In this document: positions 8,469 through 59,976 of the stretch, in pieces
Numbering within the stretch: the stretch's first letter is position 1
Layout of the letters: every line of letters starts with the position of its first letter
From: Lentimonas sp.
Lineage (GTDB): Bacteria; Verrucomicrobiota; Verrucomicrobiia; Opitutales; Coraliomargaritaceae
Direction of reading: 5' to 3'
Length of the DNA: 64,000 nt
Assembly: GCA_047617435.1 (NCBI GenBank)
Contig: JBLGBC010000001.1
Coordinates: 5,502 to 69,501, forward strand
The notes under the pieces: generated by a model
What the model was told of the DNA's origin: nothing
Database searches by the model: none
The model's input: only the letters and a program-made list of their open reading frames with translations
Program-made: the position numbers and the translations under genes

Positions 8469-8470
8469 CG

Positions 8471-9544
8471 ATGAGTCGAATTTGTAATATTATGTTCGCC
8501 TTGGTACTGGCTGTTTTTTCCGGCTGCCAGAGTCGCAATGCGCCGGAAACCTTCGACCCGCGCTCGGAACTGGAGCGAAGCCGATTGGGGTCGAGTCATT
8601 TTATTGAAATGGAAGGCGGGCGTGAACTGCGGGCAGAGTGGTTGCGCCCGAGCTTGGAACCGTACCGCTTGGGAGTGGGGGATTGGGTTGATGTTGAGAT
8701 CTCGGGGGTTGACAGTAGTCGCGCACAGACCTTTGTCATGCCGGATGGTCGCGTGTATTACGATTTGGCTGGTGGCGTTTTGGCCGATGGGTTGACGGTG
8801 GAAATGTTGGGCGCCACACTGGAGGCCGCACTACTTCGTGATTATTCAAGTCCGAGTGTAAATGTCACCTTGCGCGAGGTGAATAGCCGGCGTGCCTGGT
8901 TGCTGGGGCGCCTGAATAAGCCCGGCTTGTACCCGCTCTCACAGCCGACGACACTGCTGGAAGGGATCTCGCTGGCAGGTGGACTTTTTACCTCACGTTT
9001 CAGCGGAACCACTGAAGAGTTGGCCGATTTGGGGCAAAGTTTCGTACTGCGTGACGGGAAGGTACTGCCGATTAATTTAAAGCAGTTGATCAAGGAGGGG
9101 GATTTGTCTCAGAACATCTATTTGGAAGATGGCGACTACGTCTATTTGCCTTCATCCACCTCTCAAAGTGTTTATGTGTTGGGGGAGGTCGTCGCGCCGC
9201 AGTCGATCGGATTTAAGGATGATATTTCACTGGTTTCGGCGATTTCCAAGGCGAGGGGGCCGACGCAGGATGCAAATCTGGAAGGGGTACTGGTTATTCG
9301 GGGCAGTTTGACTGAGCCGCGAGTGGCGGTGGTTGATTTGCGCGCGATTTTTAGTGGTCAAGCGACTGATTTTAAGCTGGAGCCCTTTGATGTGGTCTGG
9401 GTGCCCGACCGCCCCTTTAAACTGTTGGAGCGCTATTTTTGGGTGATTGTTGACTCTGCCGCGACAACCATAGCGGTTCGCGAAGGTGCGAATGCTGTGG
9501 AGGGTGCGGGTTCCACCTCAGTGACGATCCCCATCTCTCGATAA
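8471..9544 (+). CDS. polysaccharide export lipoprotein (Wza/OPX-like), paralog of the upstream gene
   Basis: ORF track 8393..9544. The ATG at 8471 gives a lipoprotein signal MSRICNIMFALVLAVFSGC (lipobox FSGC). YRLGVGDWVDVEISG...PDGRVYYDLAG is a Poly_export motif, followed by SLBB-like repeats. Confidence 0.8.
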   Translation: MSRICNIMFALVLAVFSGCQSRNAPETFDPRSELERSRLGSSHFIEMEGGRELRAEWLRPSLEPYRLGVGDWVDVEISGVDSSRAQTFVMPDGRVYYDLAGGVLADGLTVEMLGATLEAALLRDYSSPSVNVTLREVNSRRAWLLGRLNKPGLYPLSQPTTLLEGISLAGGLFTSRFSGTTEELADLGQSFVLRDGKVLPINLKQLIKEGDLSQNIYLEDGDYVYLPSSTSQSVYVLGEVVAPQSIGFKDDISLVSAISKARGPTQDANLEGVLVIRGSLTEPRVAVVDLRAIFSGQATDFKLEPFDVVWVPDRPFKLLERYFWVIVDSAATTIAVREGANAVEGAGSTSVTIPISR

Positions 9545-11214: not shown

Positions 11215-12093
11215 ATGAAGCAACTACTCCATTTTATCCCGTTGTGCTTAGTCTGTGTGTTTACGCCGACGATGTTTGCTCAAACGGAGTCTGCTTTTCA
11301 GGACCAACGACGATTATTAGGCTTGGATATTGTTGGACCGGTCATGCAGGCGGGGAGTGATCCCGCCTCTGATTTGTTTCAGAGGAATGACTTAGCTGGA
11401 TTTAATGATTATATTCGTAGCAATTGGAGTGCCCCGGGCGCCCTTGTTGGGCTGGGCGCGATTTCCTTGGATCCCAATGCCATCGTATTGAATCAGGAGG
11501 CCAATGTGCGTGCTTACTACGTGTCCTCCAGCGACTCGGGGGGCACTCGCAGGCAACGCAATACTTTGGGGTTCAATGTCGAGGATCTGTCGACGGAAAC
11601 TCTCAGCGACTCGCAATTGATTTTTCCTGCGGTTTGGGGCAAAAACACCTATTATTCAGACCCAACCAGCTTGACCAAAGATCCTCGTACTCAATGGCGT
11701 CCGCTGCTTCGGGGGGACTTTGTTGACCTTGGCACCGTCGGTGCGGGCGATCGGTTGAATTTATTTCTGGCTAATCGTCCTGGTGGGACCCGGGGGAACA
11801 CGAATTATTATAGCTCTGATGCAGCGGCTAATCCCGATCAGCTCAACCATATGGTTGCTTTTGCTATACCTGACAGCCCATTCATTTTGTTGGGCTTTGA
11901 GGATCCGTACTCCCGGGATTCAAATGATTTTAATGATAACATTTTCGCCTTCAATATTGGGGTTTCGAACGTAAATTATCTGGCGAATCCAGAGCCGTCC
12001 TTCTGGCTGATGATGGGGGCGCTGTGCGGCCTCGGCGTCTGGCTGTACCGCCGTCAGCAGGGCACTGCCGCATCACCGGATCTTGCGGCTTAA
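11215..12093 (+). CDS. PEP-CTERM sorting-domain protein with a DUF4114-like domain
   Basis: 292 aa. Signal peptide MKQLLHFIPLCLVCVFTPTMFA. LGFEDPYSRDSNDFNDNIFAFNIG is DUF4114-like. C-terminus NPEPSFWLMMGALCGLGVWLYRRQQ has the PEP motif, a hydrophobic helix and a basic cluster. Confidence 0.85.
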   Translation: MKQLLHFIPLCLVCVFTPTMFAQTESAFQDQRRLLGLDIVGPVMQAGSDPASDLFQRNDLAGFNDYIRSNWSAPGALVGLGAISLDPNAIVLNQEANVRAYYVSSSDSGGTRRQRNTLGFNVEDLSTETLSDSQLIFPAVWGKNTYYSDPTSLTKDPRTQWRPLLRGDFVDLGTVGAGDRLNLFLANRPGGTRGNTNYYSSDAAANPDQLNHMVAFAIPDSPFILLGFEDPYSRDSNDFNDNIFAFNIGVSNVNYLANPEPSFWLMMGALCGLGVWLYRRQQGTAASPDLAA

Positions 12094-12617
12094 GATTCAA
12101 ACGCTTTGTTCGTATTTAACATTCGCTCAGGATTTAGGGTGTTTTTGGTTTGCTGTTCGATTCTTCCATGCGGGTGCACTTTCGTCAGTGATTGAGGTCA
12201 GTGATTGAGTGAAACGTACTATCGCTGAGTGAATACCAGAAATATCGAAAAGAGGCGGCAGTTGCGGAGCGTCCCGTCGGGCATTTTCAGGGTGCCGCAG
12301 TTGCACCGCATTTGCAATGGAAGCGGGGTCAATCCGAAGAGTTCCAGCGGGTAATCGCCACGCAAAGCAGTCCATCCAAGCGTGAGCTGTATGCGCCACA
12401 ATCTCTGGCGCATACAGAGGGGATTCGAAGTGCCACCAAGACTGCTGTGGCTACTCGATCGCTGTCAATACCTGCGGGGCGCTTCGAACTCTAGCATCCC
12501 CATTTTAGGGGTATCCCGGTACATCAGTTCGCCGATTGTATCGTCGGGATCGGGCAGTCGCGCATGTGCCGTTTTTTGCCGGCCCAAACCCAGCGGATCC
12601 ATTTTCTTTATACGTTT

Positions 12618-12645
12618 TTGAGTTGATTTCAACTAAGTTTATGCT
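12618..12645 (+). promoter_or_regulatory. candidate sigma-70-like promoter (TTGAGT-16 nt-TATGCT) upstream of the second PEP-CTERM gene
   Basis: Hexamers read directly at 12618-12623 and 12640-12645, about 100 nt upstream of the ATG at 12745. No experimental support. Confidence 0.25.
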
Positions 12646-12744
12646 TGCTTAACTAGTATGATCGAATCGTGTGATTTTCCGATTTTCGCACGTGAGCCTT
12701 AGATTTATGACTAAGACCCGAAATATTAACCGGACCACTGTCTT

Positions 12745-13614
12745 ATGAAGCAAATGCTCAAACTCCTGCCCTGCTGTTTAGTCTGTGTGTGTGCGAACTC
12801 GATTTTTGCGCAAACGGAGTCTGCTTTTCAGGATGACACACGGCTGCTCGGTGCCATGGATATTGTCGCTTCGGTGATGGAGGCGGGGAGTGATGCGGCA
12901 TCCGACTCATTTCAGAAAAATGAGTTGGCTGACTTTAATGATTATATTCGCAGTAATTGGAGCAACCCGGGCGCGTTGGCGGGCTTGGGTGCGATCGCCT
13001 TGGATCCCAATGCAATCGTGTTATTTAACGAGGCCAATGTGCGTGCCTACGTGGTGACCTCCGAAACCTCTCAGTCCAATGGGAAGCGGCATAATTCGTT
13101 AGGATTTAATACTGGGGATGCCGTGAATCTGGAGGAAGCCCAACTGATCTTTCCATGGGTTCAGACGGCAAATAAGTATTATTCGGATCCGCTTAGTTTA
13201 AAGAAAAATCCCCGTAAAGATTCGGACCCTTTGATTCGCGGAGATTTTGTTGACCTAGGACTGGTGGGAGCGGGTGAAAAGCTGAATTTTTTCATTGCCA
13301 ATGGCACGGATAAAATCGCCACGACAGTATTCACTGCAGATGCAGCTTCAAACCCAGACCAAGCGAGCCACATGGTAGCTTTTGCCATTCCAGACAGTCC
13401 TTTCATTTTATTGGGTTATGAGGATCCGTATTCGGGGAATAACGGTAAATTTAATGATAATATCTTTGCCTTCAATATTGGGGCACAGAACGTGGCTTAC
13501 TTGGCGAATCCGGAGCCTTCCTTTTGGCTGATGATGGGTGCGGTGTGTGGCCTCGGCGTATGGCTGTACCGCCGTCCAGAGGAGTCCGGCGATTCGCAGG
13601 ATTTAGTCGCTTAA
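12745..13614 (+). CDS. PEP-CTERM sorting-domain protein with a DUF4114-like domain (paralog of 11215..12093)
   Basis: 289 aa, collinear with the upstream paralog over its full length (for example FAQTESAFQD, NDYIRSNWS, LDPNAIVL, NHMVAFAIPDSPFILLG). C-terminus NPEPSFWLMMGAVCGLGVWLYRRPEE. Confidence 0.85.
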   Translation: MKQMLKLLPCCLVCVCANSIFAQTESAFQDDTRLLGAMDIVASVMEAGSDAASDSFQKNELADFNDYIRSNWSNPGALAGLGAIALDPNAIVLFNEANVRAYVVTSETSQSNGKRHNSLGFNTGDAVNLEEAQLIFPWVQTANKYYSDPLSLKKNPRKDSDPLIRGDFVDLGLVGAGEKLNFFIANGTDKIATTVFTADAASNPDQASHMVAFAIPDSPFILLGYEDPYSGNNGKFNDNIFAFNIGAQNVAYLANPEPSFWLMMGAVCGLGVWLYRRPEESGDSQDLVA

Positions 13615-15572
13615 TGATCCAACGCTTAATCCGCATTTTTCTTTTCGCGGGTCTGTTGCTCGCGATTGTGATCGGCATTGTCTGGGGCGTACGGCTGCTT
13701 CAGCAGCAGCATGAGGCGCAGCAGTATGCGGCAGTGTATCGTGAAGCTGAATTGCTGCTGGCTGGGGGGCAGGCTGTGGCCGCGCTGGATTTGCTGAAAG
13801 CAAAATTTGATGCACAGCGAGTGGATACGGGCTTAGATAATTGGCCTGTTTTAATGACACGCGCGGCGCTCAGCAGTCGGAATTACAGTTACCTGGAACG
13901 CCTAGTGCTGGACTACCCGAATCTCTTATTGGTCGAAGAGGAATTGGCTTTATGGTGGGCTCGGGCGCAAATGCACCGCGGGCATTGGGATACTTTAGCG
14001 CCCTTGTTTCAGCATTGGTCTGCCGCTCAAAGCGAGGAACCGCATCGCTGGGACTTATTGCAGGCGGACCACTTAATGCTTAAAGGTGCTGTTGCCGAGG
14101 CGCGCGAACTTTTGTTGAGCTGGAGCGGTGCTGGGCGTGATGAGGCGAATCGGCAATTACGCTTGGCCATGACATCGGGGCCGGAGGGATCGAAAATCTT
14201 AGACGCATTAAACGCGGCCCATCGTGCCCTGCCTCGCACTGCAGATGTGCATGCGGTTGCCGCGCAGTTGATTGAGCAAGCGGGTAATTATAGCCTGGCT
14301 CAGCGGGAATATGTCGCCGCATTTTTATTGGAACCCGAGAATCCATTATTTGGGGATTTCCTCGGGGAGTTTTATCGTCGCGTCAATGAACTGCCGCTAG
14401 CGATTGATACATGGCGTCAAACAGTTGAAAATACTGAAGATCCACGCGCATGGTGGAAGGTCTGGTTCTGGGAGCGTGTGACGCAACCACGCGGGGAGGC
14501 TTTAGTGCCGCCGAGTGGGGAGTGGTGGGGGCAAGTGCCGACTCGCCTGGCTGTAACCAGCCCTATGAACTTTTTGGAGGCGGATTTCCTCGTCGATCAT
14601 TTCAGCGCCCCAGCGATTTTAGCCAACAGTGAAGCCTATCATTGGATTTGGATTCTGGAGCTTTTAAAGCATGGCGACGAGGCGACTGCCCTGGAATTGA
14701 TTGAAACGATGCCGCTATCCTCGCATGCAATTGCTCCCAATCTGCGGAGTGTGCTGCAGGCGTTACTGGATTGGCGCCTGCGAGGCAACTGGCCCCGAGG
14801 TATCGTCTTTGAGTCGGGGCGTTTTGCGCATCGCTTTCTGCGTTCGTTTGAGAGTTATCGCCCCGAGCATTTGCCATCGCAAGCGTCTGATTTGACGCAG
14901 CTGGAACGATTTTTACTTTCAGAGTGGGCGATTCCGGCACTTTTCTTATCCGAAGGCTGGATGGGAGCCGCGTATCGACTGCAATCCGGCCCCTGCGAAT
15001 GGGCTGAGATCGAAGGCCAAGCGGTTTTGGATTGGATTCCTTATGCTGCGGTGAAGATGACTGCGACTTACGCGGGGTTTGATGCGGCCTTGCAGTTGAC
15101 CGAACTGTATCCGGATGATGTTGCGGTGAGTGGGCAGGCTGGCGAATTATTGATACAGTTGGGGCGCTACGATGAGGGCCTCGCGCGCTTGGAGCTGGTG
15201 GCTATGGATGCGGGCGGCGCGGGCTACCGAGCGACTTACTTATTAGCCTTGGCTGCGTCGAAGCTCGGTCGCTACGAGGAGGCGGTTCAACTCATTCGCG
15301 GACGCGAGGATCTGGCGCAGGCAGTCAGCGGGCTAGAACTTTTGGCGCGCTGTGCACGGGCGCAAGATCAGGCCGACGAGGCGTTACAGCTGTACCAGCA
15401 GCTGGACTCCAGATCCATCGAAGGACTGATTTATCGTTTTGAAAATGCCAAGCTGCAATCGGATTTTGTTCTGGCGCGTGAACTGGTGCAGACACTGTTG
15501 CTATTGGAGCCTAATGAGGTGAGCTACCACAAATTATTAAGTGAGCTGGACGCAGCAGTCGTACGGGAATGA
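13614..15572 (+). CDS. TPR-repeat protein with an N-terminal membrane anchor (PEP-CTERM-system TPR protein analog)
   Basis: ORF track 13524..15572. The in-frame ATG at 13614 (TAATG overlap) gives MIQRLIRIFLFAGLLLAIVIGIVWG, a TM anchor. It is followed by Leu/Ala-rich helical repeats with TPR-like periodicity (GRYDEGLARLELV, GRYEEAVQLI). Confidence 0.65.
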   Translation: MIQRLIRIFLFAGLLLAIVIGIVWGVRLLQQQHEAQQYAAVYREAELLLAGGQAVAALDLLKAKFDAQRVDTGLDNWPVLMTRAALSSRNYSYLERLVLDYPNLLLVEEELALWWARAQMHRGHWDTLAPLFQHWSAAQSEEPHRWDLLQADHLMLKGAVAEARELLLSWSGAGRDEANRQLRLAMTSGPEGSKILDALNAAHRALPRTADVHAVAAQLIEQAGNYSLAQREYVAAFLLEPENPLFGDFLGEFYRRVNELPLAIDTWRQTVENTEDPRAWWKVWFWERVTQPRGEALVPPSGEWWGQVPTRLAVTSPMNFLEADFLVDHFSAPAILANSEAYHWIWILELLKHGDEATALELIETMPLSSHAIAPNLRSVLQALLDWRLRGNWPRGIVFESGRFAHRFLRSFESYRPEHLPSQASDLTQLERFLLSEWAIPALFLSEGWMGAAYRLQSGPCEWAEIEGQAVLDWIPYAAVKMTATYAGFDAALQLTELYPDDVAVSGQAGELLIQLGRYDEGLARLELVAMDAGGAGYRATYLLALAASKLGRYEEAVQLIRGREDLAQAVSGLELLARCARAQDQADEALQLYQQLDSRSIEGLIYRFENAKLQSDFVLARELVQTLLLLEPNEVSYHKLLSELDAAVVRE

Positions 15573-16872: not shown

Positions 16873-17428
16873 TCTTCTTTTTATACTCATAATCGTAGCT
16901 TTATGTTTACGGACGATTGAGTTAGAAGATGCTACTGTGCGTATTGAGGGGTTGTCGAAAGATGGGACGGGGTATACCTCACGGAAAATTGAACTCACTG
17001 ATTTTGAACAGGATATGCTGGGTGAGGCGATGGGGTATAAGTCGATTTATATTTGGAGGGGGTTGCCGTATGTGATCACGATCCTGGATGGGACACGCAA
17101 TCGGCAGGCGGTTCATGACCCTCGTTATTGTTTCATTGGCGCGGGCTGGAGTATTGATGAAGATCAAAAGATCGACTTTGCCGGGGGGGACGCGCGGCGC
17201 ATTACGCTAAGTAATGGTGAGCAGGAGAGTGAAGCGCTGTTTTTCTATTCGACCGGGACGAGTATCTTTAGCCACCCGATCGAGTATTGGTTGCGAGCCA
17301 CGCTGCGACGTTGGTTGCGCAGTTACGGTGGTGATGAACCTCTGTTAGTGATGGTGCAACCGCTGGAGCCCGGCGTTAAGTTGGAGCCGGCTCTAAATGG
17401 ACTACTGCCTGTTTTACGCCTGCCATGA
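16841..17428 (+). CDS. EpsI-family exosortase-associated protein
   Basis: 195 aa with a single N-terminal TM (LILPFSLLFILIIVALCL) followed by a soluble domain. That domain has HDPRYCFIGAGW, which matches my recollection of the EpsI/DUF3485 H-x-P-x-x-C...G-W motif. Confidence 0.65.
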   Translation: MKQQHLILPFSLLFILIIVALCLRTIELEDATVRIEGLSKDGTGYTSRKIELTDFEQDMLGEAMGYKSIYIWRGLPYVITILDGTRNRQAVHDPRYCFIGAGWSIDEDQKIDFAGGDARRITLSNGEQESEALFFYSTGTSIFSHPIEYWLRATLRRWLRSYGGDEPLLVMVQPLEPGVKLEPALNGLLPVLRLP

Positions 17429-44103: not shown

Positions 44104-44218
44104 AGTTCACTGAATTGAGTACCCACGGCTTTTTCATTATTTTGCCACGCATGAGTGCGCGCAGATGACTTGACCTTACTGTACCTATGCCACACAATGA
44201 AGCACTGACCCCTTATCA

Positions 44219-44743
44219 ATGAAAGCACACAGAGCCCTCATTCTACGCAGTAATCGATTTTTAGGTTCAACCTTGATTGATCAGGGGCTTATTGCAGTTG
44301 GTGATCTGGAGGCGGCTAATGAAATATTCATGACGACGATGCAGTCTGATTCGGCCCCGCGCGCTTCGATCCTTACGGCGCTCTTGCATGAGCTTAAGGT
44401 GTTGGACGAGAAGGTTTTAATTCAAAATATTGTTGATAACTGCGACCTGGGTCTGATCGATTTAGACTTCATCAAGCCCAGTTCTCTACGACCAATGAAT
44501 CTGGATCTGGATTTGTGCTGGGCGACATCGACGGTCCCTTTTGATCAGACGGAAGGCATTTACATGGTAGCGACCTGTTATTATTTGAGTGCCCCGGTGA
44601 TTAAATATTGGGAAGAGATTTTAGGCGGCCGAGTGATTTGGTATGCCACGACTACGGCTTCGATTTCTCGTTCTTTAGAGCGCATACAAGAAATCCATGA
44701 GGCAGAGGACCTCGCTGCGGTTGAAGCCGAAGCGGAGGCTTAA
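44219..44743 (+). CDS. stand-alone T2SSE_N/MshEN-like domain protein
   Basis: 174 aa. FLGSTLIDQGLIAVGDLEAANEIF...CDLGLIDLDFIKPSSL...VPFDQTEGIYMVATCYY parallels the N-terminal domain of GspE/PilB ATPases, including the one at 47455. It has an acidic Ala/Glu tail. Confidence 0.55.
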   Translation: MKAHRALILRSNRFLGSTLIDQGLIAVGDLEAANEIFMTTMQSDSAPRASILTALLHELKVLDEKVLIQNIVDNCDLGLIDLDFIKPSSLRPMNLDLDLCWATSTVPFDQTEGIYMVATCYYLSAPVIKYWEEILGGRVIWYATTTASISRSLERIQEIHEAEDLAAVEAEAEA

Positions 44744-44778
44744 GCCCGAGTAACCGATTTTTTTGGGAATTTAGATAA

Positions 44779-46092
44779 ATGGGACATAGCATATTAATAT
44801 TGGATGACGACGACGACTTCAACTGTCTGCTGTCTGATATCTTTGAGCAGGGGGACTATTCTGTAACTTCGGTGCTGGATCCACTCAAAGCCATTGAGAT
44901 CTTTAACAATTCGAATTTTGAATTGGTCGTCACCGATCATAAAATGCCGGGCATGAGTGGTGCGGAGTTCATGAAGCTAGTGAAACAGACGCGCTTGGGA
45001 GTGCCGGTCATTATTGTCTCCGGCTATCTGGATAATGATACTATTCGTGAATTGATAGGCGCTGGAGTCGGTGGGGTCTTTTTAAAGCCTTTGAATATTT
45101 TCTCCTTGCTACAGCGAACTTCTGAATTGATTGCTGAAACGGAAAAAAAACGCGAGCGCTCAGAGGTGCACGAAAGCGCGGGGAATGAGGCTCAATATGA
45201 CAAAATTGGGTTCAACTTTCTTTCGTTTCCGTGTCGCTCAGATGCATCGTTAAAGTTTGCGCAACGTATTCACAGCTTAAAGGAATTTAACTCAAGTTTA
45301 ACGCTCGTCGGTGAGTCCGGCACTTGCTATCATTCTATCTGCGAGGACATTCGCGGCTTTTATAATGATCCAACAGAGCATTTTATTTATTGGAGTCCTA
45401 GTTCTTTTGATCAGGATAAGGTGTTTTCCATGATTGCAGCGGCACAGAGCCAGGGCGCGTCGCGTGTGACTTGTGTATTGCTAAAGTTGGAAGGCATGAG
45501 CGAGGATCAGAAGTTGCTGGCGCGCGAACTCGCAAAATCTAGCAGTGTCTTTGCCGACTTCGACATGAAGCTGCGAACCATTTTTTGTGTGAATGGTGAC
45601 TTAGATTTGTTGATGGATGAGGGGGTGATCGATGAAAATCTATATATGCTGATGGGGACGTCGGAGGTGATGGTTCCAGCCTTACGCAATTGTTTGAATG
45701 ATATCCCTGTTCTGGCGCAGCAGTTAGTGGTGCAATTTGCCGCGGCACAGGGCTTGGCGACAGTGCCCCGCTTTAATCGGGCTGCCCGTGACCTATTGCA
45801 GCAGCAGCCCTTAATCGGAAATCATGAAGAACTCAGTTTAATTGTTCGCGCAATTGTCGAGCATTCGCACGGTGATGTGCTGACGGCAATATTGGTGCAA
45901 GATGTATTGAAACAGATGGTAGCCTCTAGCCCCCGCCGCTTGCTGCAGGAGCATCTAGCGGCAAGCCAAGTTGACTATGCTTTCGCAGTCAATCAACTCT
46001 ATCAGGGGGATCATGGGAAAGTCGCTGAGTTTTTCGGAGCCGAATGTGGCGTGATCGATAGTTTTTTTAAACGAGAAGTAGATACAGATTAG
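44779..46092 (+). CDS. response regulator with a degenerate NtrC-type (bEBP) AAA+ domain and a weak Fis-like C-terminus
   Basis: 437 aa. The receiver is intact (ILILDDDDD...LVVTDHKMPGMSG...VSGY...FLKPL). The central domain has LTLVGESGTCYHS in place of Walker A GESGTGKE, has no GAFTGA, and keeps lid-like VPALRNCLNDIPVLAQQLV. Confidence 0.7.
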   Translation: MGHSILILDDDDDFNCLLSDIFEQGDYSVTSVLDPLKAIEIFNNSNFELVVTDHKMPGMSGAEFMKLVKQTRLGVPVIIVSGYLDNDTIRELIGAGVGGVFLKPLNIFSLLQRTSELIAETEKKRERSEVHESAGNEAQYDKIGFNFLSFPCRSDASLKFAQRIHSLKEFNSSLTLVGESGTCYHSICEDIRGFYNDPTEHFIYWSPSSFDQDKVFSMIAAAQSQGASRVTCVLLKLEGMSEDQKLLARELAKSSSVFADFDMKLRTIFCVNGDLDLLMDEGVIDENLYMLMGTSEVMVPALRNCLNDIPVLAQQLVVQFAAAQGLATVPRFNRAARDLLQQQPLIGNHEELSLIVRAIVEHSHGDVLTAILVQDVLKQMVASSPRRLLQEHLAASQVDYAFAVNQLYQGDHGKVAEFFGAECGVIDSFFKREVDTD

Positions 46093-46108
46093 TAACGCTT
46101 AATTATAT

Positions 46109-47413
46109 ATGGCTGGCAGAATATTAGTTTTAGACGACGAAGAGAATTACGCTCAAATGCTGCAGGAACTGCTGCGCGAGCATAATTACCGTGTCGATAT
46201 GGCCACTCGTCCTGAGCGCGCCATCGATCAACTGGAAGAGATCCCTTATGATCTAGTCATCTCCGACTACAAAATGCCAGTGATGGATGGTTCGGATTTT
46301 TTAAAGAGAGCACGTGAGCTGTATCCGCATTTACCCTTTATTCTTGTCTCTGGGCTGATGAATACACCGGAGTTGGTTAAGGTGGCTAATATGAGTGTTA
46401 CACTCGTGATGGAAAAACCGTTGAATACGAGTGTCTTTCTCAAGCAAGTCGCTCGTTTTTCCGATCCCATGACAGATGAGGAAAAGGCGAGTGTTTCGCA
46501 GGATCAATCTGCCGGATCGCATGCCTCTGTCGCCTCGGACAGTTATCCTAGCGAACCGCGCTATTTCAGTGCGAAATCTGATTTGTCGAAGTGTTTTCTG
46601 AGAAAGGCGTGGACGGCTGCTTGTCGTGAAAAAGGGCACTTATTCCTACTGGATGGATCTGCGGGTGAAGGAGAACTAGTGCTTAAGGATCTTTCTTTGT
46701 GGCGGGGGAAGGGTGATCAGCCGATTGAAACCCTCGAATTTTCCGAGCTGATGAATGGTGGCGATGCCAAACTGAAATCGATTGCTGAAGATTCGGATAA
46801 AAGTAATGTCGTTTGCGTGCAAATACCCAGTACGATGGATTTGATTTCAGTGGTTGAGTTTGTCGGGTCGAAACTGGTTGTGGTCGATTCGCTCTTTCTT
46901 GTTTTTATTGTCGGTAAAGAGTGGGCTTCGGACTTTGATGTTAATACATTGGGCAAGGGCTTGCGTATCCCCTCGATTGCCCAGCGCCCGAGTGATATCG
47001 CTGAATATATTTCTCGGTTTATGCATTTTGGGCGTAAACGAAACGAACAGCCACGTTTCGTCGAGTTTTCTACTGAAGCGATTTACGCATTGCTGGCCTA
47101 TGAGTGGAGTAGCTACCTTGAAATTCAAGATGTAATTTTGCGAGTCGCCGGCGAAGGTGATGCGAGTCTCATCACTTTGGAGCGTTTGAACCCCTACTTA
47201 AATAGTACCACAACTTCGACGCCCGAACCCTCGAAACGCTTGTTTAATTTGTTGAAGCAAACTCAGACCCGTTATTTGGATAGTTTGATTGGTCCTTTGG
47301 AGCGCTCTCCAGTTGAGCTAAGCAAGCGTTTGGATCTGGATCAATCTATGGTGCTCGAGAGTGCTGACCTAAATGAACTTCCTTTGATTGATCCGGGATT
47401 AGCACAATTCTAA
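46109..47413 (+). CDS. response regulator with a degenerate NtrC-type (bEBP) AAA+ domain (paralog of 44779..46092)
   Basis: 434 aa. The receiver is intact (ILVLDDEEN...LVISDYKMPVMDG...VSGL...MEKPL). The central domain has LFLLDGSAGEGEL instead of Walker A, with bEBP lid remnants LRIPSIAQRPSDIAEYISRF and FSTEAIYALLAYEWSSYLEIQDV. Confidence 0.7.
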   Translation: MAGRILVLDDEENYAQMLQELLREHNYRVDMATRPERAIDQLEEIPYDLVISDYKMPVMDGSDFLKRARELYPHLPFILVSGLMNTPELVKVANMSVTLVMEKPLNTSVFLKQVARFSDPMTDEEKASVSQDQSAGSHASVASDSYPSEPRYFSAKSDLSKCFLRKAWTAACREKGHLFLLDGSAGEGELVLKDLSLWRGKGDQPIETLEFSELMNGGDAKLKSIAEDSDKSNVVCVQIPSTMDLISVVEFVGSKLVVVDSLFLVFIVGKEWASDFDVNTLGKGLRIPSIAQRPSDIAEYISRFMHFGRKRNEQPRFVEFSTEAIYALLAYEWSSYLEIQDVILRVAGEGDASLITLERLNPYLNSTTTSTPEPSKRLFNLLKQTQTRYLDSLIGPLERSPVELSKRLDLDQSMVLESADLNELPLIDPGLAQF

Positions 47414-47454
47414 ATTATTAAAGTCGGCTTTCAGCTGTCTCTCCTCTTACTCCT

Positions 47455-49191
47455 ATGGCGCTAGCTAGAATTCAGACTTCGATTGTTAAAAATTTGCTTC
47501 AAATGGGGCAGCTTACTGACGTCCAGTTTAATGCGATTACGGAAACTAAGGAGGAGATGTCGGGTGAAGTCGTCGAGAAGTTGCTTCTTGAAGAATATAA
47601 AATCACCGTATTTAAGCTATTGGTAGCGAAGGCCGAAGCGATTGGAATCACTCCCATTAACCTTAGGAAGTGTAGTATCAATGAGCAGAATTTCGCCAAA
47701 ATGGATCAGGACTTTTGTCGAGAGAACCAAGTGCTACCCGTTGGGGTCTGCGGTGGTTTTGTGTTGTTGGCTGTTAGTAATCCTTTCGATTTAAGTCTAG
47801 TCGCAAAAGTTAAGGATTTATGTAAAATGCAGGTGCGTATCCTGCTGGCAGTTGAGTCTGAAATCAAGGAGGCGCTGCGGGATAAAGATGAGCCCCACAC
47901 TGCTGTAGGTTTTGGTGATGTGGTGGATGCACTTGGGCTGGATTTCGGGGAGGAAGATAAGCTGGAAGATGAGGATTTGTCCGATGAAGACTCGGCACCG
48001 ATTATTAGGTTGGCGAATCGTATTATTGAAGAGGCTTATTTTGCTGGTGCGAGTGATATTCATATCGAACCCTTTGAGAAAGAGACGCGTGTACGAGTGC
48101 GTATCGATGGTGTGTTGGAGACTCGCTTGACGATTCCCCAGGCGGCATCGGGCGGCCTGCTGGCTCGACTCAAGGTTATGTCGCAGTTGGATATTGCGGA
48201 GCGCCGACTCCCTCAGGACGGGCGTATTATTTTCAAGCAATACAATAAGAAGGGGATCGACGTCGACCTTCGTGTTTCGACTGCCCCCTTAAATCACGGT
48301 GAAGGCGTCGTTATGCGTATTCTGGATAAGCAGAAGAGTACTTTGCCGTTACCGGCCCTAGGGTTCTCAGAGCGTAATTTAAAGGTGTATCGTGAACTGA
48401 TTGAGCGGCCGTATGGGATGGTTTTACATTGTGGGCCAACCGGTTCCGGTAAGTCCATGACTTTGTACTCCGCATTGAATGAGATTAATACCGTGGATCG
48501 CTGTATCCGTACTGCGGAAGATCCGATTGAGTATACTTTGCCCGGACTCTTACAGATGCAAATGCAACGTAAGATTGGGCTGACTTTTGCGACTGCGCTG
48601 CGTGCCTTTTTGCGGCAGGATCCCGATGTTATTTTGGTGGGCGAAATTCGAGATAAAGAGACTGCCGGTATCGCGGTTGAAGCGGCGCTTACAGGTCACA
48701 TGCTTTTCAGTACACTGCACACCAATGATGCACCGACGACTGTGTCGCGTTTGACTGAAATGGGGGTGGAACCCTTTATGATCTCTGCGTCTTTACTCTG
48801 CGTCTGTGCACAGCGTCTGATGCGCCGGGTTTGTAAGACTTGTAAGCAAACTTATATGCCCGTGGGCAATGAGGCTGAGATTATACAACGCGCGCTGAAC
48901 TGGACTGGTAAGCTGCGCCGTCCGGCCGAGGGTGGTTGTCCGGCTTGCGGTAGCGGTGGCTATAAAGGGCGAGTGGGGATTCACGAATTGATGGCCACCA
49001 GCGAAGAATTGATTGCTGCAATTAACGAGGAAGCGCAATCGTCGGTGCTCAAGAAAATTGCGATGCGCAACGGGATGATGACTTTACACCAAGATAGCAT
49101 GCTCAAGGTCAAAGAGGGCTTAACTACCATGGCAGAGGCGCTTGCGACGGTTCCGCCTGATATGGAAGAGTACGAAGTCAACCACAACTAA
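47455..49191 (+). CDS. GspE/PilB-family secretion/pilus-assembly ATPase
   Basis: 578 aa with a T2SSE_N-like N-terminus. Walker [14 protein letters not shown]; Asp/His boxes ([31 protein letters not shown]); tetracysteine CKTC...CPAC motif. Confidence 0.9.
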
Positions 49192-52861: not shown

Positions 52862-52900
52862 CCAAACAAAAACGGGGTGTCGGCTCTGTGCCGACACCCC
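52862..52900 (-). terminator. rho-independent terminator downstream of the DEAD-box helicase gene
   Basis: Perfect 11-bp stem ggggtgtcggc/gccgacacccc (52874-52884 and 52890-52900) with a 5-nt loop. On the minus strand it is followed by GTTTTTGTTTGGG. Confidence 0.75.
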
Positions 52901-52940
52901 GCTGTATCTAGTGTTTAATCAACTAAAAATCCTTCATGCC

Positions 52941-54386
52941 TTAGCGATTGCGCGGGCGGCTGTTACGGCCTGGTGCTTGGCTGCCACTGCCACCACTGCT
53001 ACCTGCGCTTGCGCCGGCTGGGCGAGCGCTGCGTGGACTATTGCCACTACCGCTGTTGCCACCACCACCGCCGTTGCCGCCGCGCCGCTGCTGTCCTCCT
53101 CCTCCGCCACCTTGGCGTTGGCCGCCACCTTGGCGTTGGCCGCCGCCACGTTGTCCGCCACCGGTTTTGGGTTTTTCAACGCGTACGCCACTTTGGTGTA
53201 GTACGCCACTTTGGTGTAGTGTTGCAATTTCTTGGGCGTGGTGTCCGTGGCTGTCTGCTACCGGCACTGTCTTTTTAATCAGCTTTTCGACATCGCGCAG
53301 TAGCGCAACTTCCTCCATCGAGCAGAACGATAGGGCGCGGCCACTGTTACCGGCACGAGCCGTTCGTCCGATCCGGTGCACATAGGCATCCGGTTCCATC
53401 GGCAAGTCAAAGTTGATCACCAGGGTGATGTTCTTTACGTCAATTCCGCGAGCCGCCACATCGGTGGCAACCAGTACGGGGATGCGGCCCTGCTTGAACA
53501 GATCGAGTGTTTTTTGGCGGGCGGCTTGTGATTTGTTGCCGTGAATCGAGTCGGCTTCGATGCCGATACTGTTCAGTTTTTTTGCTAAATTCTTTGCGCC
53601 GTGTTTGGTGCGGCTGAAGACTAGGCTCAGTTCACTTTTATGCGCTTCGGTGCGCTCTTTTAGTAAGTCGATCAGTAAATCCTGTTTGTTCTTATGTTGA
53701 ACGAAGAGTACATGCTGATCGATCTTTTCTGCTGTCGTACCTTGCGGTGCGATCCGGATCTCAGCTGGATTATTAAGCAGGGTGTTGGCCAGTGTCGTGA
53801 TTTCCGGAGCCATGGTGGCGGAGAAAAGCAGCGTCTGACGCGACTTTGGTAGGGCGGCTGCGATCTTACGGATGTCGCGAATGAAGCCCATGTCCAACAT
53901 GCGGTCGGCTTCATCCAGGATGAAGGTATCGACTTGGCTGAGGTCGATGTGCCCCTGTTGATGTAGGTCGAGCAAGCGGCCGGTCGTGGCCACCAGAACA
54001 TCGAGTCCGGCGAAGAGTGTCTTAATTTGTGGCTTTTCGGAAACGCCGCCGAAAACCATGCCCATTTTTAGGTCTAGGTACTTGCCGTAAGTCTGAAAAC
54101 TTTCGGTGACTTGGACCGCGAGTTCACGCGTTGGTGTTAGGATCAGGCAGCGCACGCCGCGCCGGAAAGGTTTGCGCGGATTTAGTGCGAATTGGTTGAG
54201 GATCGGCAGGGCGAAGGCCGCTGTTTTGCCGGTTCCGGTTTGCGCGCAGGCGATCAGGTCACGGCCCTCGACTAGCAGGGGGATCGCTTTGGCTTGGATC
54301 GGAGAGGGGATGGTGTAGCCCTTGTCCTTGAGTGCGCGTTGAATGGGTTCTGCCAGAGGCAGATCAGAGAAGTTTACTTCAGTCAT
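52941..54386 (-). CDS. rhlE: DEAD-box ATP-dependent RNA helicase (RhlE-like) with a Gly/Arg-rich C-terminal tail
   Basis: ORF track 52941..54593. The ATG at 54386 gives MTEVNFSDLPLAEPIQRAL...PSPIQ (Q motif). Also AQTGTGKT, DEAD, SAT and HRIGRTARAG. The tail is GGGQRGGGQRQGGGQRQGGGGGG. Confidence 0.9.
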   Translation of the reverse strand: MTEVNFSDLPLAEPIQRALKDKGYTIPSPIQAKAIPLLVEGRDLIACAQTGTGKTAAFALPILNQFALNPRKPFRRGVRCLILTPTRELAVQVTESFQTYGKYLDLKMGMVFGGVSEKPQIKTLFAGLDVLVATTGRLLDLHQQGHIDLSQVDTFILDEADRMLDMGFIRDIRKIAAALPKSRQTLLFSATMAPEITTLANTLLNNPAEIRIAPQGTTAEKIDQHVLFVQHKNKQDLLIDLLKERTEAHKSELSLVFSRTKHGAKNLAKKLNSIGIEADSIHGNKSQAARQKTLDLFKQGRIPVLVATDVAARGIDVKNITLVINFDLPMEPDAYVHRIGRTARAGNSGRALSFCSMEEVALLRDVEKLIKKTVPVADSHGHHAQEIATLHQSGVLHQSGVRVEKPKTGGGQRGGGQRQGGGQRQGGGGGGQQRRGGNGGGGGNSGSGNSPRSARPAGASAGSSGGSGSQAPGRNSRPRNR

Positions 54387-55015
54387 AATCAGGTAAGCCG
54401 TCGGTATATAGTGATACCGACAGATCAATGTGTTCGATGTATTTGGTTTTACGTTTCCCGCGAGCAGCCATTCATCGTAGCTGGACTGATCAGGGGCAGG
54501 TTTTTGCCGGGGGAAACGCACCATAAGTGTGCTCATCGAAGGAAAACCTGAATAGAGGGCGCGGACAACGACAGGAAATGTATCCATAAGCAAGCTATTA
54601 ATTTTTAAGTAGCAAGGAGGGAGGGCGCTTGTCCCAAGCGCTGAGTTGTTCGGGTGATTAGAAATAGCCTGTCCCTCGCACTCGCCCCCGCACTCGCCTA
54701 ATGGAGGTAATCACCAAAAACTGTTTGATAGCCTAAGCCTAACGTACCTTAAGTTATTCTTATTCAAGCATGGGGGTGCCAAGTATTACTACCTAGTTGC
54801 AGGAGCCTTTAACACTTTCTGGAATCTATCTGTCTCTGGCAGCACAAAGTTGGGAGTTTTAAGTGGACCAGCATGGCACAGTCGCATTGTTGGACTTCAC
54901 GGGAAAGAAGACATAATCATAAAATATGATAAATCGGCCTATATCGAGTGACTGAATAATAATATTGCCGTACCATCACTATATGAGTATTAACCGCATA
55001 AATGAAAATTAAGGA

Positions 55016-56528: not shown

Positions 56529-58415
56529 TCAGATTCGGGAAAGTACCAGTTCCACTCTATGAGATGCCTTTTTGCCCTTTATTTTGATCGTCACTGGGTA
56601 GCATTCCACACCGGGAAAGGGCATCCAATACCGGCTTTGGTTTTCACCGAGCTCGATTTGGAAATCCGTTGAGCTTTTCGCAATACGAAGTTCCCAAACG
56701 ATACCGGAGGCCGATTTGATTCGGACGCGATCATGGGCTACTTTTTCAAAGCGGATACCCTCATCATAAACGAAAGGCTCCACGATTTGGATGTCGGTGC
56801 TGCTTGCTTGGTCTAACTCATAGATTTTGGTCAGCGAGTCGTCAGTGAAGCGATGGGTCAAGCGGTACCTAACGCCAGAGCTCTTACCGTTGATCGTCCT
56901 GAGCTGGCCAGTCGCGACGACTTCCACCTGGTTGCCTGTTTCCTTCAGGTCAAGGGTTCCCTCCGTTTCATAGAGATTGGTGGCGTAGTCCTTGCCACGG
57001 GACTCGACGCGGGGGGTCAGCGGGAGCAAGTTTTGCTCAATCGGCATGTGGTCCTTCTCGTGGCGCAGGTACTCGGTCTGACTGGCTATCTGCGCCAAAC
57101 CGAAGTCACCAAAGCCTTTCAACCATAGGTGGGTGAGGCTACCGCCACGCGGAACCGACTCACGCTTATAACGACTGATTTCGCCATAGGCCGAAACCGT
57201 TGCCATAAGGTACTTGGTTTTCACCACGGCGGTCCGAATACTTTCGTAATGGCGGACAAAACGTTCCTGCTGCGCGGGCAACGGTTCGGGTTTTGCCGGT
57301 GTTTTGGCGTACTCGATCACCATGGCAATGCTCTGCGCTCGGGCGAATGTTCCGTAGATACAGGGCGGCGTGCTGCTGGCGTGTCGGTTTGCGTGAGGGC
57401 CGTAGACGACAAGCCCATCCTTGATGAAGGTTTCTTTCAAAAAATGCAGGCTCAACGCTGCGGCTGATTGGAACCGGCCGTCTAGATCGGCGAGAAGGCC
57501 GAAGGTGAAATAGACACCGGGAGCGGTCTTGGTGCCACTCTCAAGAGTGTACTTGAAGGAGCGGGTGCCCCAGGAATTGTCGATGCCGCCATAGGGATAA
57601 ATAAAGGGTAAATGCGCCTCGAGCACTCTTGCTGCTGCCTTACGATCCGTGTCCGTAAGTAGGGCGTAAAGCGCCATAAATCCGATTGATTGGGCCAAGT
57701 TGTAGCCAGCATCGACGCCATTTCCCTCGCCAACCAGGAGGCCTTCCTCGTTGATGGCCTTTTCGGTGATTTCAATCAGTGAGGCCGCCTTAATCAGCCA
57801 GGATGCCTTAGGCTTTGGGAGTGCATGGTGGGCAAAGACAAGGCCGACCGCTCCGGTGGGCTGGTAATTCAGGTTGCCCATGGGGAATCTCGCCTCGACC
57901 CAGTCCGCGGCATGTGCAATGGATGTTTCCCAATCTTCCAGTTCCTTGGCGGAGAGGTAGGGTTTGAGTATCGGTAGAGAACCGGCGAGGGAAATGAGCT
58001 GATCGGCGGTTGTTCCCTCCCAGCCGCGGTGATGAGGATCGAGGTAGTGCCAGTCTTCACCCCAAGCACCACTTGTTTCCTGAATGCTAACGAGCCAGTT
58101 GCCTAGGTTGATCGCGGCATCACGATATGCCACCTTACCGCTATGCCGGTAGGCGACGGCAAGGGGATACACGGCCTCAGCCGCGCGCGAGTGTTTCGGG
58201 TGTTTCTGGGGATTTATGCTCGGGCAGACCAGTGCGCCGAAATCGTCAGCGTCTGATTCGGTAATCTGAGTAGCAATCAGAGAGTCCGACAACTCGTAAA
58301 GCAGGTCGAGATGGGGGTTGTCCTCGCATTTTTCATGTTCAACGATATTGGTCTCTTGGGCATGGAGACAGGTGGTGACGATTACCAAAGCAACAGCAGT
58401 CAATAATATTCTCAT
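56529..58415 (-). CDS. secreted hypothetical protein (possibly an alpha/alpha-toroid plus beta-sandwich carbohydrate-active enzyme)
   Basis: 628 aa. Signal peptide MRILLTAVALVIVTTCLHA. The N-terminal ~400 aa is rich in W/Y/G helical-repeat-like segments and the C-terminal ~200 aa looks beta-rich. No family was recognised by eye. Confidence 0.6.
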   Translation of the reverse strand: MRILLTAVALVIVTTCLHAQETNIVEHEKCEDNPHLDLLYELSDSLIATQITESDADDFGALVCPSINPQKHPKHSRAAEAVYPLAVAYRHSGKVAYRDAAINLGNWLVSIQETSGAWGEDWHYLDPHHRGWEGTTADQLISLAGSLPILKPYLSAKELEDWETSIAHAADWVEARFPMGNLNYQPTGAVGLVFAHHALPKPKASWLIKAASLIEITEKAINEEGLLVGEGNGVDAGYNLAQSIGFMALYALLTDTDRKAAARVLEAHLPFIYPYGGIDNSWGTRSFKYTLESGTKTAPGVYFTFGLLADLDGRFQSAAALSLHFLKETFIKDGLVVYGPHANRHASSTPPCIYGTFARAQSIAMVIEYAKTPAKPEPLPAQQERFVRHYESIRTAVVKTKYLMATVSAYGEISRYKRESVPRGGSLTHLWLKGFGDFGLAQIASQTEYLRHEKDHMPIEQNLLPLTPRVESRGKDYATNLYETEGTLDLKETGNQVEVVATGQLRTINGKSSGVRYRLTHRFTDDSLTKIYELDQASSTDIQIVEPFVYDEGIRFEKVAHDRVRIKSASGIVWELRIAKSSTDFQIELGENQSRYWMPFPGVECYPVTIKIKGKKASHRVELVLSRI

Positions 58416-58666
58416 TTTGATAGATAACTCTCATCGTTAATTCAACTGACTAACTGGCTGATAGGAATTTTGATTCCTGACGATACTGAAAATTTAACAT
58501 AGGTCAGGTGGAAATCAAGTGTTTAGCCCTTTCTCTCTAATTTAAGCTACTGCAGAAGTTTGTATGAGGTGCACTGAACCTGGTGGACAGAAAAAAACTA
58601 GAAAAAAACTAGGGACAGGCTAATTAACTAATTTACGGATCGTTAAATTTGTGGTATATTTTTCAT

Positions 58667-59647
58667 ATGCGAAGGCGACGAATAAAAGTAGGGGGTAGTA
58701 CTGCAGTATATCACTGCATGACGCGCACTGTGAATGGTGAGCGGTTGTTGGAGGATCGGGATAAGGAGATGTTGCGTAAGCAGCTGTGGCAGGTGGCGGA
58801 CTTTTCAGGTGTGGAGGTGCTCACATTCTGCATTATGTCGAATCACTTCCACGTGTTGGTGCGGGTTCCGGAGCCTTCTCAGGTCTCGGATGCGGAGCTA
58901 CTGCGCCGCTATGCGATCTTGTACCCCAAGCCGACAAAGCACCAGCAAGCGAGTATTCTGCAGTTGAGGTCGATCTTAGCTGCGGGCGGGGAAGAGGCGG
59001 ATGTGCTGCGGCGTGGCTTATTGGCTCGAATGGCAGATGTATCTGAATTTATGAAAACGCTGAAGCAGCGCTTCTCGGTTTGGTTCAATAAATCGCATGG
59101 CCGCTACGGCACTTTGTGGGCCGAGCGATTTAAGTCGGTGCTAGTTGAGGGCAAAGGTAATCCGCTGCAAACGATGGCAGCCTATATTGATTTAAATCCC
59201 GTTCGTGCTGGAATCGTGAGTGATCCGAAGGATTACCGTTTTAGCGGCTACGGTGAGGCGGTTGCAGGTGTTGAGCTGGCGCGCCAGGGCTTGCGCGGTG
59301 TGTGGCATGAGGGCTTTGGTGTGCATGATGATGTGACGGCTCTACAGTCGCACCGGATGCTGATGTACGCCAAGGGAAGTAATGACCGCTCGATTCCGCA
59401 GGAGGACGTGGTGCGGGTGCTGGAGCAGGAGAATGCCATTTTACCCAAGGCTCAGGTCTTGCGCTGCCGTGTACGCTATTTCACTGATGGTGCGATTTTT
59501 GGCACCAAAGATTTCGTGGAGGGCTTTTTGGGCGCCATTCAAATGGAAAAGGGCCGCAAGCGCCCTCCAAAGGTGCACGCAATGAAGGGCGCTGATTGGG
59601 GTGACTTGGCTGTGGTCAAGGGGATGCGGTCGAAGGTGTTTGGGTAG
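58667..59647 (+). mobile_element. IS200-like / RayT-like Y1 (HUH) transposase gene
   Basis: ORF track 58649..59647; ATG at 58667. AVYHCMTRTVNGERLL...LTFCIMSNHFHVLVRVPE is the HUH motif, and AAYIDLNPVRAGIV...YRFSGY is the Tyr region. No clear terminal inverted repeats were seen. Confidence 0.75.

Positions 59648-59901: not shown

Positions 59902-59976
<75 letters not shown>

Follow-up and report, generated by a model that had tools for sequence, protein, structure and literature searches.

A compact set of four genes on the plus strand of a 64,000-nucleotide stretch of Lentimonas sp. DNA (contig JBLGBC010000001.1 of assembly GCA_047617435.1; this whole stretch is referred to here as the window) combines an intact motor ATPase of the PilB/GspE type with two response regulators, RR1 and RR2, whose own ATPase domains have decayed, and with a small protein of 174 amino acids, p174. 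The four consecutive open reading frames (ORFs) follow each other in the order p174, RR1, RR2 and ATPase with intergenic gaps of 35, 16 and 41 nucleotides (Table 1), just as a first, sequence-only reading of this DNA had described them, with gaps of 16-41 nucleotides. It is tentatively proposed that these genes constitute a signal-input module, driven by phosphorylation and acting through protein-protein contacts, for the ATPase that would power the assembly of a type IV filament, either a pilus or a type II secretion-like structure. This is the simplest reading because the unit consists of an intact motor and three non-enzymatic proteins, and because the constrained parts of the latter are the receivers and the GSPII fold. 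Within this proposal we infer all physical interactions, the direction of the control and the identity of the filament.

Conservation of the four-gene unit in Opitutales

A scan of one genome per species yielded 73 loci, in which linkage was assessed by tblastn and ORF extraction. All four genes were found linked in at least 42 Opitutales species-level genomes besides the window, and the nearest relatives of the locus are annotated as Puniceicoccaceae, Coraliomargarita and Opitutaceae (Verrucomicrobiota, order Opitutales). Clustering of every neighbouring ORF identified only the four module genes as universal. The next commonest neighbour was an HtrA-like protease, present at 14 of 45 loci, and neighbour clustering of these 45 loci revealed no further conserved neighbour in the form of a kinase, PilC or pilins. 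The flanks of the module vary from genome to genome and contain housekeeping genes (obg, metK, ahcY, kdtA, mdh, fabG/F, metG), a synteny that shows the four genes to be co-conserved. The first reading had been staked beforehand on two points, the origin of the central domains of RR1 and RR2 in enhancer-binding proteins and the keeping together of the four genes; both came out in its favour, the second with respect to co-conservation and not to co-transcription.

The usual order is p174-RR1-RR2-ATPase, and in more distant Opitutales (loci L045, L052, L055 and L069) it changes to RR1-RR2-p174-ATPase. In yet another distant member of the order (locus L068, 10986-17793) the RR1-RR2 pair is followed by a prepilin-like gene and converges on a second operon, so that a p174 homologue and an ATPase paralog are encoded next to the pair on the other strand. 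The genes of this converging operon encode two prepilin-like proteins, a DUF7305 protein, a receiver domain fused to p174 and a PilB-like ATPase. The fusion and its neighbours tie p174 to phospho-signalling and the ATPase to pilin-like substrates. At the same locus the fusion and the PilB-like gene are flanked by three prepilin-like genes and the DUF7305 gene altogether, and a second ATPase with the N-terminus typical of the module (M..LARIQT) starts at 17262.

The degree of constraint on each domain was estimated as the mean Kimura distance across 43 genomes. The core of the ATPase shows a mean distance of 0.19, closely followed by the receivers of RR2 (0.24) and RR1 (0.33). The AAA+ remnant of RR1 reaches 0.87 and that of RR2 1.60, and the helix-turn-helix (HTH) remnants at the C-terminal ends of RR1 and RR2 attain 1.44 and 1.86, respectively. 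The receivers of both regulators are therefore constrained like the motor, and their former DNA-binding ends drift fastest. Judged by these distances, selection in RR1 and RR2 rests on phospho-signalling and not on the reading of DNA.

Receivers and decayed domains of RR1 and RR2

Both regulators present the homologous REC-AAA+-HTH architecture of the NtrC family. In Pfam, RR1 is matched by REC (72 bits), by Sigma54_activ_2 (21 bits, below cutoff) and by AAA_lid_14 (28.2 bits, above cutoff), and RR2 by REC (68 bits) and weakly by AAA_lid_14 (20 bits). The RR1 family profile aligns with NtrC1 of A. aeolicus (1ny5) along residues 4-374 with an E-value (E) of 4e-25, and the RR2 family profile aligns with NtrC4 (E 1.7e-24), with a ZraR construct comprising the AAA+ and DNA-binding domains (E 9e-18) and with NtrX over its full length. 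RR1 and RR2 are themselves full-length paralogs, since their family profiles align over 414 columns (hhalign E 3.7e-45). An AlphaFold2 (AF2) model of RR1 with a pLDDT of 89.6 has NtrX and NtrC1 as its top Foldseek matches, and NtrC4, VpsR, LuxO and FleQ are also among its nearest structures; for RR1 as well as for p174, AF2 and Foldseek were run on database homologues. The profile comparisons leave no doubt that the central domains of both RR1 and RR2 descend from enhancer-binding proteins.

The two receivers and the domains that follow them have had very different fates. The residues required for phospho-transfer are invariant or nearly so across both families, and RR1 and RR2 thus carry what is expected of response regulators. 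The AAA+ domains were compared by aligning the family profiles to NtrC1, NtrC4, NtrX and ZraR. The Walker A motif, GESGVGKE in NtrC1, has become GE(S/P)GT(C/H)Y(H/R) in RR1, where Y/F takes the place of the lysine, and G(S/x)AGEGE in RR2, where A/G does; no family member keeps the lysine. None of the RR1, RR2 and paralog sequences aligned to NtrC1 retains the region of the GAFTGA loop. Walker B of RR1 (LFLDE in NtrC1) has the family sequence VLLELE, with VLLKLE in the window, and the arginine fingers have been converted from FRED to IDEN and from YYRL to Y(I/M)LM (YMLM in the window); RR2 is too divergent to be aligned around Walker B and the arginine fingers. The arginine of sensor II is a cysteine in RR1 and is retained only in RR2, as R293. 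Neither protein matches Pfam Sigma54_activat, a model that gives 243 bits for the E. coli NtrC control. Of the features by which the NtrC family is recognised, Walker A GxxxxGK[ST], GAFTGA and HTH_8 are missing from both proteins, and Walker B hhhhDE and the arginine fingers are missing from RR1 and have no alignable counterpart in RR2. Both proteins conform to the definition of an atypical enhancer-binding protein, in which GAFTGA is absent and the fold is retained. The sequence-only reading proved accurate in all these respects: it had described intact receivers in both proteins, remnants of the enhancer-binding-protein lid, the loss of the Walker A lysine (GESGTCY in RR1 and GSAGEGE in RR2) and of the GAFTGA loop, and the descent of the central domains.

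Decay extends to the C-terminal ends, where both regulators still carry a remnant of the Fis-type HTH that had escaped the first reading. The isolated tails of RR1 and RR2 give no match to HTH_8 even at E<=10, compared with 51.8 bits for the E. coli NtrC control. In both tails Asp/Glu, Val or Ala stand where the recognition helix would have Arg/Lys, with the consensus G-(T/A)-(D/E)-(V/T)-x-x-(I/V)-(E/D)-(A/S)-x-L-(K/Q) in RR1, and over their last 45 residues the tails have a median net charge of 0 (RR1) and -3 (RR2). The loss of the basic residues, the missing HTH_8 match and the fast evolution of the tail favour regulation by protein-protein contacts over transcriptional regulation. Proteins of the RR1/RR2 type are labelled in databases as "sigma-54-dependent transcriptional regulator" or "DNA-binding NtrC family response regulator", labels that are not supported by what their sequences contain.

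Some further observations concern the regulators themselves. RR1-like paralogs with 32-43% identity occur without the module at loci L048-L051, L053, L057, L061 and L063-L065 (at ~8001-9300 in most of them), and nothing conserved was found among their neighbours. These stand-alone paralogs share the dead Walker A, the deleted GAFTGA and the lost arginine fingers, which indicates that pseudo-enhancer-binding proteins form a small family in Opitutales. Five cysteines are conserved in RR1 and its stand-alone paralogs, C152 (90%), C188 (97%), C270 (97%), C305 (87%) and C232 (66%), and by alignment to NtrC1 the cysteine sites fall in the N-linker, the helix after Walker A, the Walker B strand, the sensor I strand and the sensor II position. 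No other cysteine column of RR1 reaches 50% conservation, RR2 has no equivalent, and L069 lacks all five together; the former nucleotide pocket may thus hold a metal-binding or redox-active site formed by this set. The end of RR2 carries a conserved motif, D-L-x-x-x-P-L-x-x-P-x-L (L at 84-96%, P at 52-76%), within an otherwise fast-evolving tail, and this motif may be a docking peptide.

Most RR1 orthologs carry a FleQ-like "FRS" ahead of the AAA+ domain, with the Arg changed to Leu in the window and to Asn in one ortholog (P0065). The R/N pair that follows Walker A in FleQ corresponds to E/D in RR1. A FleQ-type binding site for cyclic di-GMP (c-di-GMP) in RR1 is not supported by this informal comparison of motifs.

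p174 and the motor ATPase

The ATPase is the most conserved of the four gene products, with 72-80% identity across most Opitutales. It matches the Pfam families MshEN (52 bits) and T2SSE (412 bits), and its alignment to M. xanthus PilB reveals Walker A (GPTGSGKS), the Asp box (EDPIEY), Walker B, the His box and both CxxC pairs, which upholds the view of the first reading that the enzyme is fully intact. In NCBIfam it scores 557.6 bits with PilB (cutoff 675.65) and 535.1 bits with GspE (cutoff 630.25), and therefore reaches neither equivalog cutoff. Its matches in the Protein Data Bank (PDB) are the PilB proteins of M. xanthus (412 bits) and Geobacter (408 bits) and EpsE/GspE (~374-375 bits). 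By these scores the protein appears slightly closer to type IVa PilB than to EpsE/GspE, and it is best described as a PilB/GspE family member to which neither equivalog is assigned.

The relation of p174 to such motors lies in its fold. In Pfam it gives a weak MshEN match below cutoff (E 0.0015), and a profile of the family finds by sequence, at marginal significance, the GSPII-A domain of PilF (E 0.003) and MshE (E 0.007) in the PDB. The AF2 model (pLDDT 89, pTM 0.81) is more informative: its top 20 Foldseek matches in the PDB are all N-domains of PilF, XpsE, PilB or MshE. The best of them is PilF GSPII-A (9g1w; E 3.8e-7, TM 0.60/0.67), and the others include MshE (5htl; E 1.2e-5), XpsE, PilF GSPII-B and the N-domain of X. 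citri PilB from its complex with PilZ. Because the model matches only the N-terminal GSPII/MshEN domains of traffic ATPases, the GSPII/MshEN fold of p174 is considered confirmed, and the protein consists of a stand-alone fold of this type, similar to N1D, the N-terminal domain of these motors, with an acidic C-terminal tail. Residues L7, N12, R13, G16, A33, N34, L52, E64, G78, D109, S124, W131 and W141 are invariant in the family. An exhaustive HMMER profile search identified 164 cluster representatives among 1.84 billion, and among the matches listed nearly all are stand-alone proteins of 150-190 amino acids and none is a full-length ATPase.

Comparison with the N1D of the neighbouring ATPase gave ~14% identity and a weak profile match (hhalign E 0.012, probability 3.7%), and p174 therefore represents a distinct GSPII-fold family and not a mimic of this ATPase's N-domain; these values rule out a close copy. 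The claim of the first reading that p174 mimics the N-domain of the ATPase is thus upheld for the fold and fails for the resemblance to this particular domain. As side observations, a p174 homologue lies directly upstream of an RR1-like gene at L054 (7072-9308) and L062 (1172-3403), with RR2 and the ATPase absent within the fetched locus, an arrangement that suggests RR1-type proteins, in addition to the ATPase, as partners of p174.

Since MshEN domains may respond to c-di-GMP, a lead raised by the first reading, both N-domains were compared with the 24-residue motif RLGxx(L/V/I)(L/V/I)xxG(L/V/I)(L/V/I)xxxxLxxxLxxQ, which occurs in tandem and has been published in strict and relaxed forms (PMC5013675). 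Mismatches were counted over the 11 specified positions of the relaxed form. The MshE control has none in either half-motif. The p174 family has three in the first (positions 1, 21 and 24) and four or more in the second, and the N1D of the ATPase has four in the first and four to five in the second. The mismatches of p174 include the ligand-contacting Arg and Gln; the Arg is shifted by one residue within an invariant NRFLG, and the Leu of position 21 is an invariant Asn. The N1D of the ATPase lacks both turn glycines of the motif. As neither domain fits even the relaxed motif, canonical c-di-GMP binding by p174 or by the ATPase N1D is not supported, and this reading was rejected.

Around the module, metG lies upstream of p174 across a gap of 115 nucleotides, and a convergent cupin gene follows the ATPase after 528 nucleotides. 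Neither the module nor the sequence upstream of it yielded a riboswitch or any other known RNA. At a greater distance, the window contains a large exopolysaccharide/exosortase locus that lies 11 kb upstream of the module and holds glycosyltransferases, Wzy, two Poly_export proteins, a flippase, the exosortase EpsH, an EpsI-like gene and a Bac_transf priming transferase, together with a partner-switching set of STAS proteins, a SpoIIE/HATPase_c_2 protein and a single-domain response regulator. Downstream, overlapping frames at ~52900-53400 look like ORFs because of the repeats of a DEAD-box helicase. An ulvan lyase gene, which fits a marine polysaccharide degrader, is accompanied by a transposase ORF and a tRNA gene.

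Table 1. Positions of the module, its domains and other features. Positions refer to the window except in the two rows for locus L068, which use the coordinates of that locus.
Feature	Position	Strand	Remarks
p174 gene	44219-44743	+	174 amino acids
RR1 gene	44779-46092	+	437 amino acids
RR1 receiver domain, residues 1-119	44779..45135	+	phospho-acceptor D53, acidic pocket D9/D10/D11, S81 and K103 all conserved
RR1 degenerate AAA+ domain, residues ~145-380	45211..45918	+	Walker A GESGTCYH, Walker B LLKLE, GAFTGA deleted
RR1 C-terminal three-helix remnant of Fis-type HTH	45931..46092	+	basic recognition-helix residues lost
RR2 gene	46109-47413	+	434 amino acids
RR2 receiver domain, residues 1-120	46109..46468	+	D9, D10, E11, D53, S81 and K103 invariant; most conserved part of RR2
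RR2 strongly degenerate AAA+ domain, residues ~150-375	46556..47233	+	Walker A GSAGEGE, no GAFTGA, lid recognisable
RR2 C-terminal HTH remnant	47234..47413	+	net acidic; conserved DL...PL..P.L tail end
PilB/GspE-type ATPase gene	47455-49191	+	578 amino acids
ATPase N-terminal part	47455..47904	+	N1D, Pfam MshEN
ATPase N2D and catalytic domain (T2SSE)	47986..49191	+	Walker A, Asp box, Walker B, His box and tetracysteine site intact
Candidate sigma-70-type promoter TTGACC-17-CACAAT	44170..44198	+	20 nucleotides 5' of the p174 start, in the metG-p174 gap; consensus scan, weak
L068 receiver-p174 fusion	13269-14225	-	Pfam REC E 1e-7; directly upstream of the PilB-like ATPase
L068 PilB-like ATPase paralog	11491-13263	-	
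Exopolysaccharide/exosortase locus	1-33500		
DEAD-box helicase	52941-54593	-	C-terminal Gly/Arg/Gln-rich low-complexity tail with GGGQRQ-type repeats
Ulvan lyase gene (Ulvan_lyase_N/C)	56529-58415	-	
IS200-like Y1 transposase ORF	58649-59647	+	beside the ulvan lyase gene
tRNA gene	59905-59976	-	beside the ulvan lyase gene

Possible functions and related systems

In the signal-input module proposed here, a kinase would phosphorylate the receivers of RR1 and RR2 and thereby shift the conformation or the oligomeric state of their pseudo-AAA+ bodies, in which the former ATPase domains would serve as scaffolds. RR1 and RR2 may hetero-oligomerise, as HrpR and HrpS do, and the change would be passed to the PilB/GspE-type hexamer either directly or via p174. 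The latter would act as a GSPII domain in trans, in a manner comparable to the extra GSPII domains that PilF carries in cis or to PilZ, the adaptor that binds N1D. The outcome would be control over the recruitment or the activity of the motor. A more specific version, which we hold to be improbable, envisages a hetero-oligomeric and phosphorylation-gated ring of RR1 and RR2 pseudo-AAA+ domains, devoid of catalytic residues, for which p174 would provide the docking to the PilB/GspE hexamer. A ring that once activated transcription would in this way have become a structural clutch for another hexameric motor, and C152, C188, C270 and C305 would form a metal or redox-sensing site in place of ATP as the ligand.

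Several points weigh against the signal-input proposal. Every characterised atypical enhancer-binding protein without GAFTGA is still a DNA-binding transcription factor (PMC6158489), which gives a transcriptional role of RR1 and RR2 a strong prior. The C-terminal remnant keeps its three-helix folding in the AF2 model, and one RR2 ortholog tail gives weak generic HTH matches (MarR, E 0.003), so that some DNA binding by the tails is possible. The evidence for the output machine consists of homology and of one distant relative (L068). No histidine kinase gene and no gene for a PilC/GspF platform protein, a pilin or a secretin was found within the 64-kb window, where the first reading had already noticed the lack of the platform, pilin and secretin genes. 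Promoter and terminator scans of the module region were at or near chance level (5 sigma-70-type consensus sites observed against 7.2 expected by chance) and do not settle the operon structure. A mirror-tree analysis of co-evolution, based on partial correlations of the domain distance matrices, singled out no partner pair because phylogeny dominates all correlations.

The main alternative is that RR1 and RR2 are atypical transcription factors of the VpsR/NtrX/HupR/TyrR type, independent of sigma-54 and of ATPase activity, which would act on this operon and/or on distant filament genes, with p174 as an accessory of the ATPase. This is regarded as rather unlikely. In its favour, the nearest relatives in structure and sequence are NtrX, NtrC1, NtrC4 and VpsR, the known atypical members activate sigma-70 promoters despite the absence of GAFTGA and their non-consensus Walker motifs (PMC6158489), the three-helix C-terminal module is kept in both regulators, and regulators are commonly encoded beside their targets. 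It is at odds with tails that are neutral to acidic, have exchanged the basic residues of the recognition helix, escape the HTH_8 model and evolve faster than any receiver of the pair, which would be unusual for orthologous DNA-binding domains; moreover, the described atypical members usually keep nucleotide binding, whereas here the Walker A lysine has disappeared throughout. It is a different matter whether p174 acts as a decoy of the ATPase N-domain that competes for docking on the inner-membrane platform and thus inhibits assembly, an idea that came from the first reading. A natural PilB inhibitor protein, CpiA, is known (PMC11656802), p174 shares the GSPII/MshEN fold with ATPase N-domains and it is always encoded beside the ATPase or the regulators. 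An imitator should nevertheless keep the docking surface of the imitated domain, and p174 shares with the ATPase N1D its fold and little else: identity is low, its relatives among the matches listed are nearly all stand-alone proteins with no full-length ATPase among them, and its invariant N12, R13, N34, W131 and W141 are absent from the N1D. The decoy is for this reason unsupported and judged quite unlikely.

Sensing of c-di-GMP by the module, whether through the MshEN-type domain of p174, that of the ATPase or both, is very unlikely, although MshE, PilB2, M. xanthus PilB and PilF GSPII-B work in this way. The fold is present in both proteins, p174 keeps LGxxLVxxGLxxxxxL of the first half-motif, and the study that defined the motif remarks that it may not have to be perfectly conserved and reports c-di-GMP binding by an MshEN-containing response regulator, Bd2402 (PMC5013675); against this stand the mismatches in both halves of both domains, absent from the MshE control, which affect the ligand contacts and the invariant Asn of p174 and the turn glycines of the N1D. 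Least probable of all is that the linkage has no functional meaning and the regulators serve an unrelated process, such as that of the exopolysaccharide/exosortase locus, while sharing an operon with a housekeeping secretion ATPase. The size of that locus (1-33 kb of the window), the presence of RR1-like paralogs alone at other loci and the reported link of M. xanthus PilB to exopolysaccharide regulation (PMC5544727) would agree with it. The four genes have nevertheless stayed together despite differing flanks, divergence of the ATPase to ~60% identity and two rearrangements, the receiver-p174 fusion joins phospho-signalling to an N1D-like protein, and the exopolysaccharide locus is not a conserved neighbour.

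The proposed signal-input module has partial counterparts in known systems. RR1 and RR2 resemble the atypical enhancer-binding proteins VpsR, NtrX, HupR, TyrR, PhhR and HsfA in their REC-AAA+-HTH ancestry, the absence of GAFTGA and the non-consensus Walker motifs, and NtrX and VpsR rank among the structures closest to the RR1 model. Members of the VpsR/NtrX type differ in being proven DNA-binding, sigma-70-dependent factors with a recognisable HTH_8. Unlike them, RR1 and RR2 have lost the Walker A lysine throughout, and RR1 also its arginine fingers, their HTH remnant lacks the basic residues of the recognition helix, escapes HTH_8 and is the fastest-evolving part, and they form a tandem paralog pair tied to a PilB/GspE ATPase. 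A closer parallel in logic is offered by the PilZ-FimX-PilB system, in which PilZ binds the N1D of PilB and FimX, a receiver protein with degenerate enzyme domains, stimulates PilB (PMC11656802). In both cases a small accessory at the N1D of the ATPase would be combined with a larger degenerate receiver protein that signals post-translationally. The components are nevertheless unrelated: p174 has a GSPII and not a PilZ fold, FimX combines degenerate GGDEF/EAL domains with a receiver that cannot be phosphorylated, whereas RR1 and RR2 combine degenerate AAA+ domains with phosphorylatable receivers, and the module has no c-di-GMP motif.

Direct contact between receivers and pilus motors has also been described. 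The response regulator DrdR binds both PilB and PilT and enhances their ATPase activity (PMC13507683), and DrdR and EmvR of Xanthomonas and PixG/PixH of cyanobacteria couple phosphorylation to pilus motors by protein contact. These regulators are receivers alone or in tandem, whereas the receivers of RR1 and RR2 carry a pseudo-enhancer-binding-protein body of ~300 amino acids, and the module, unlike the DrdR/PixG type, encodes two such regulators and a GSPII protein alongside the motor. PilF of Thermus thermophilus, which has three N-terminal GSPII domains in cis, shows that a PilB-type motor can take on additional GSPII domains; p174 differs from it in being a polypeptide of its own, from a distinct family with a narrow distribution, and it lacks the motif of PilF GSPII-B, which binds c-di-GMP. 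For the hetero-oligomer that RR1 and RR2 may form, HrpR and HrpS provide a model, being products of adjacent paralogous enhancer-binding-protein genes that are reported to work only together (PMC3105312). HrpR and HrpS are active sigma-54 activators without receivers, whereas RR1 and RR2 are devoid of the catalytic residues.

A literature search on pili and secretion in Verrucomicrobia and Coraliomargarita, and on pseudo-enhancer-binding proteins acting on PilB, returned nothing relevant. The component superfamilies and the accessory control of type IV filament motors are already known; the combination of tandem pseudo-enhancer-binding-protein regulators with a free GSPII protein, fixed beside a PilB/GspE ATPase across an order, was not found in the searched literature. 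Signal input to the motors of type IV pili and type II secretion is known for only a few proteobacterial and cyanobacterial models, which rely on c-di-GMP and MshEN, on PilZ-FimX or on receiver-only regulators. The module described here would be a differing solution, based on two pseudo-enzymes and a free-standing protein with the N1D fold, across an order of abundant marine polysaccharide degraders. A practical correction concerns annotation, as the sigma-54 and DNA-binding description given to the regulators is not borne out by their sequences and p174 is carried in databases as "hypothetical". The module is testable, since it is present in cultured Coraliomargarita and Lentimonas strains. 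If the regulators do act by protein contact, they would be the first case found in which NtrC-type proteins keep phospho-signalling after the loss of ATP hydrolysis, of the contact with sigma-54 and probably of DNA binding.

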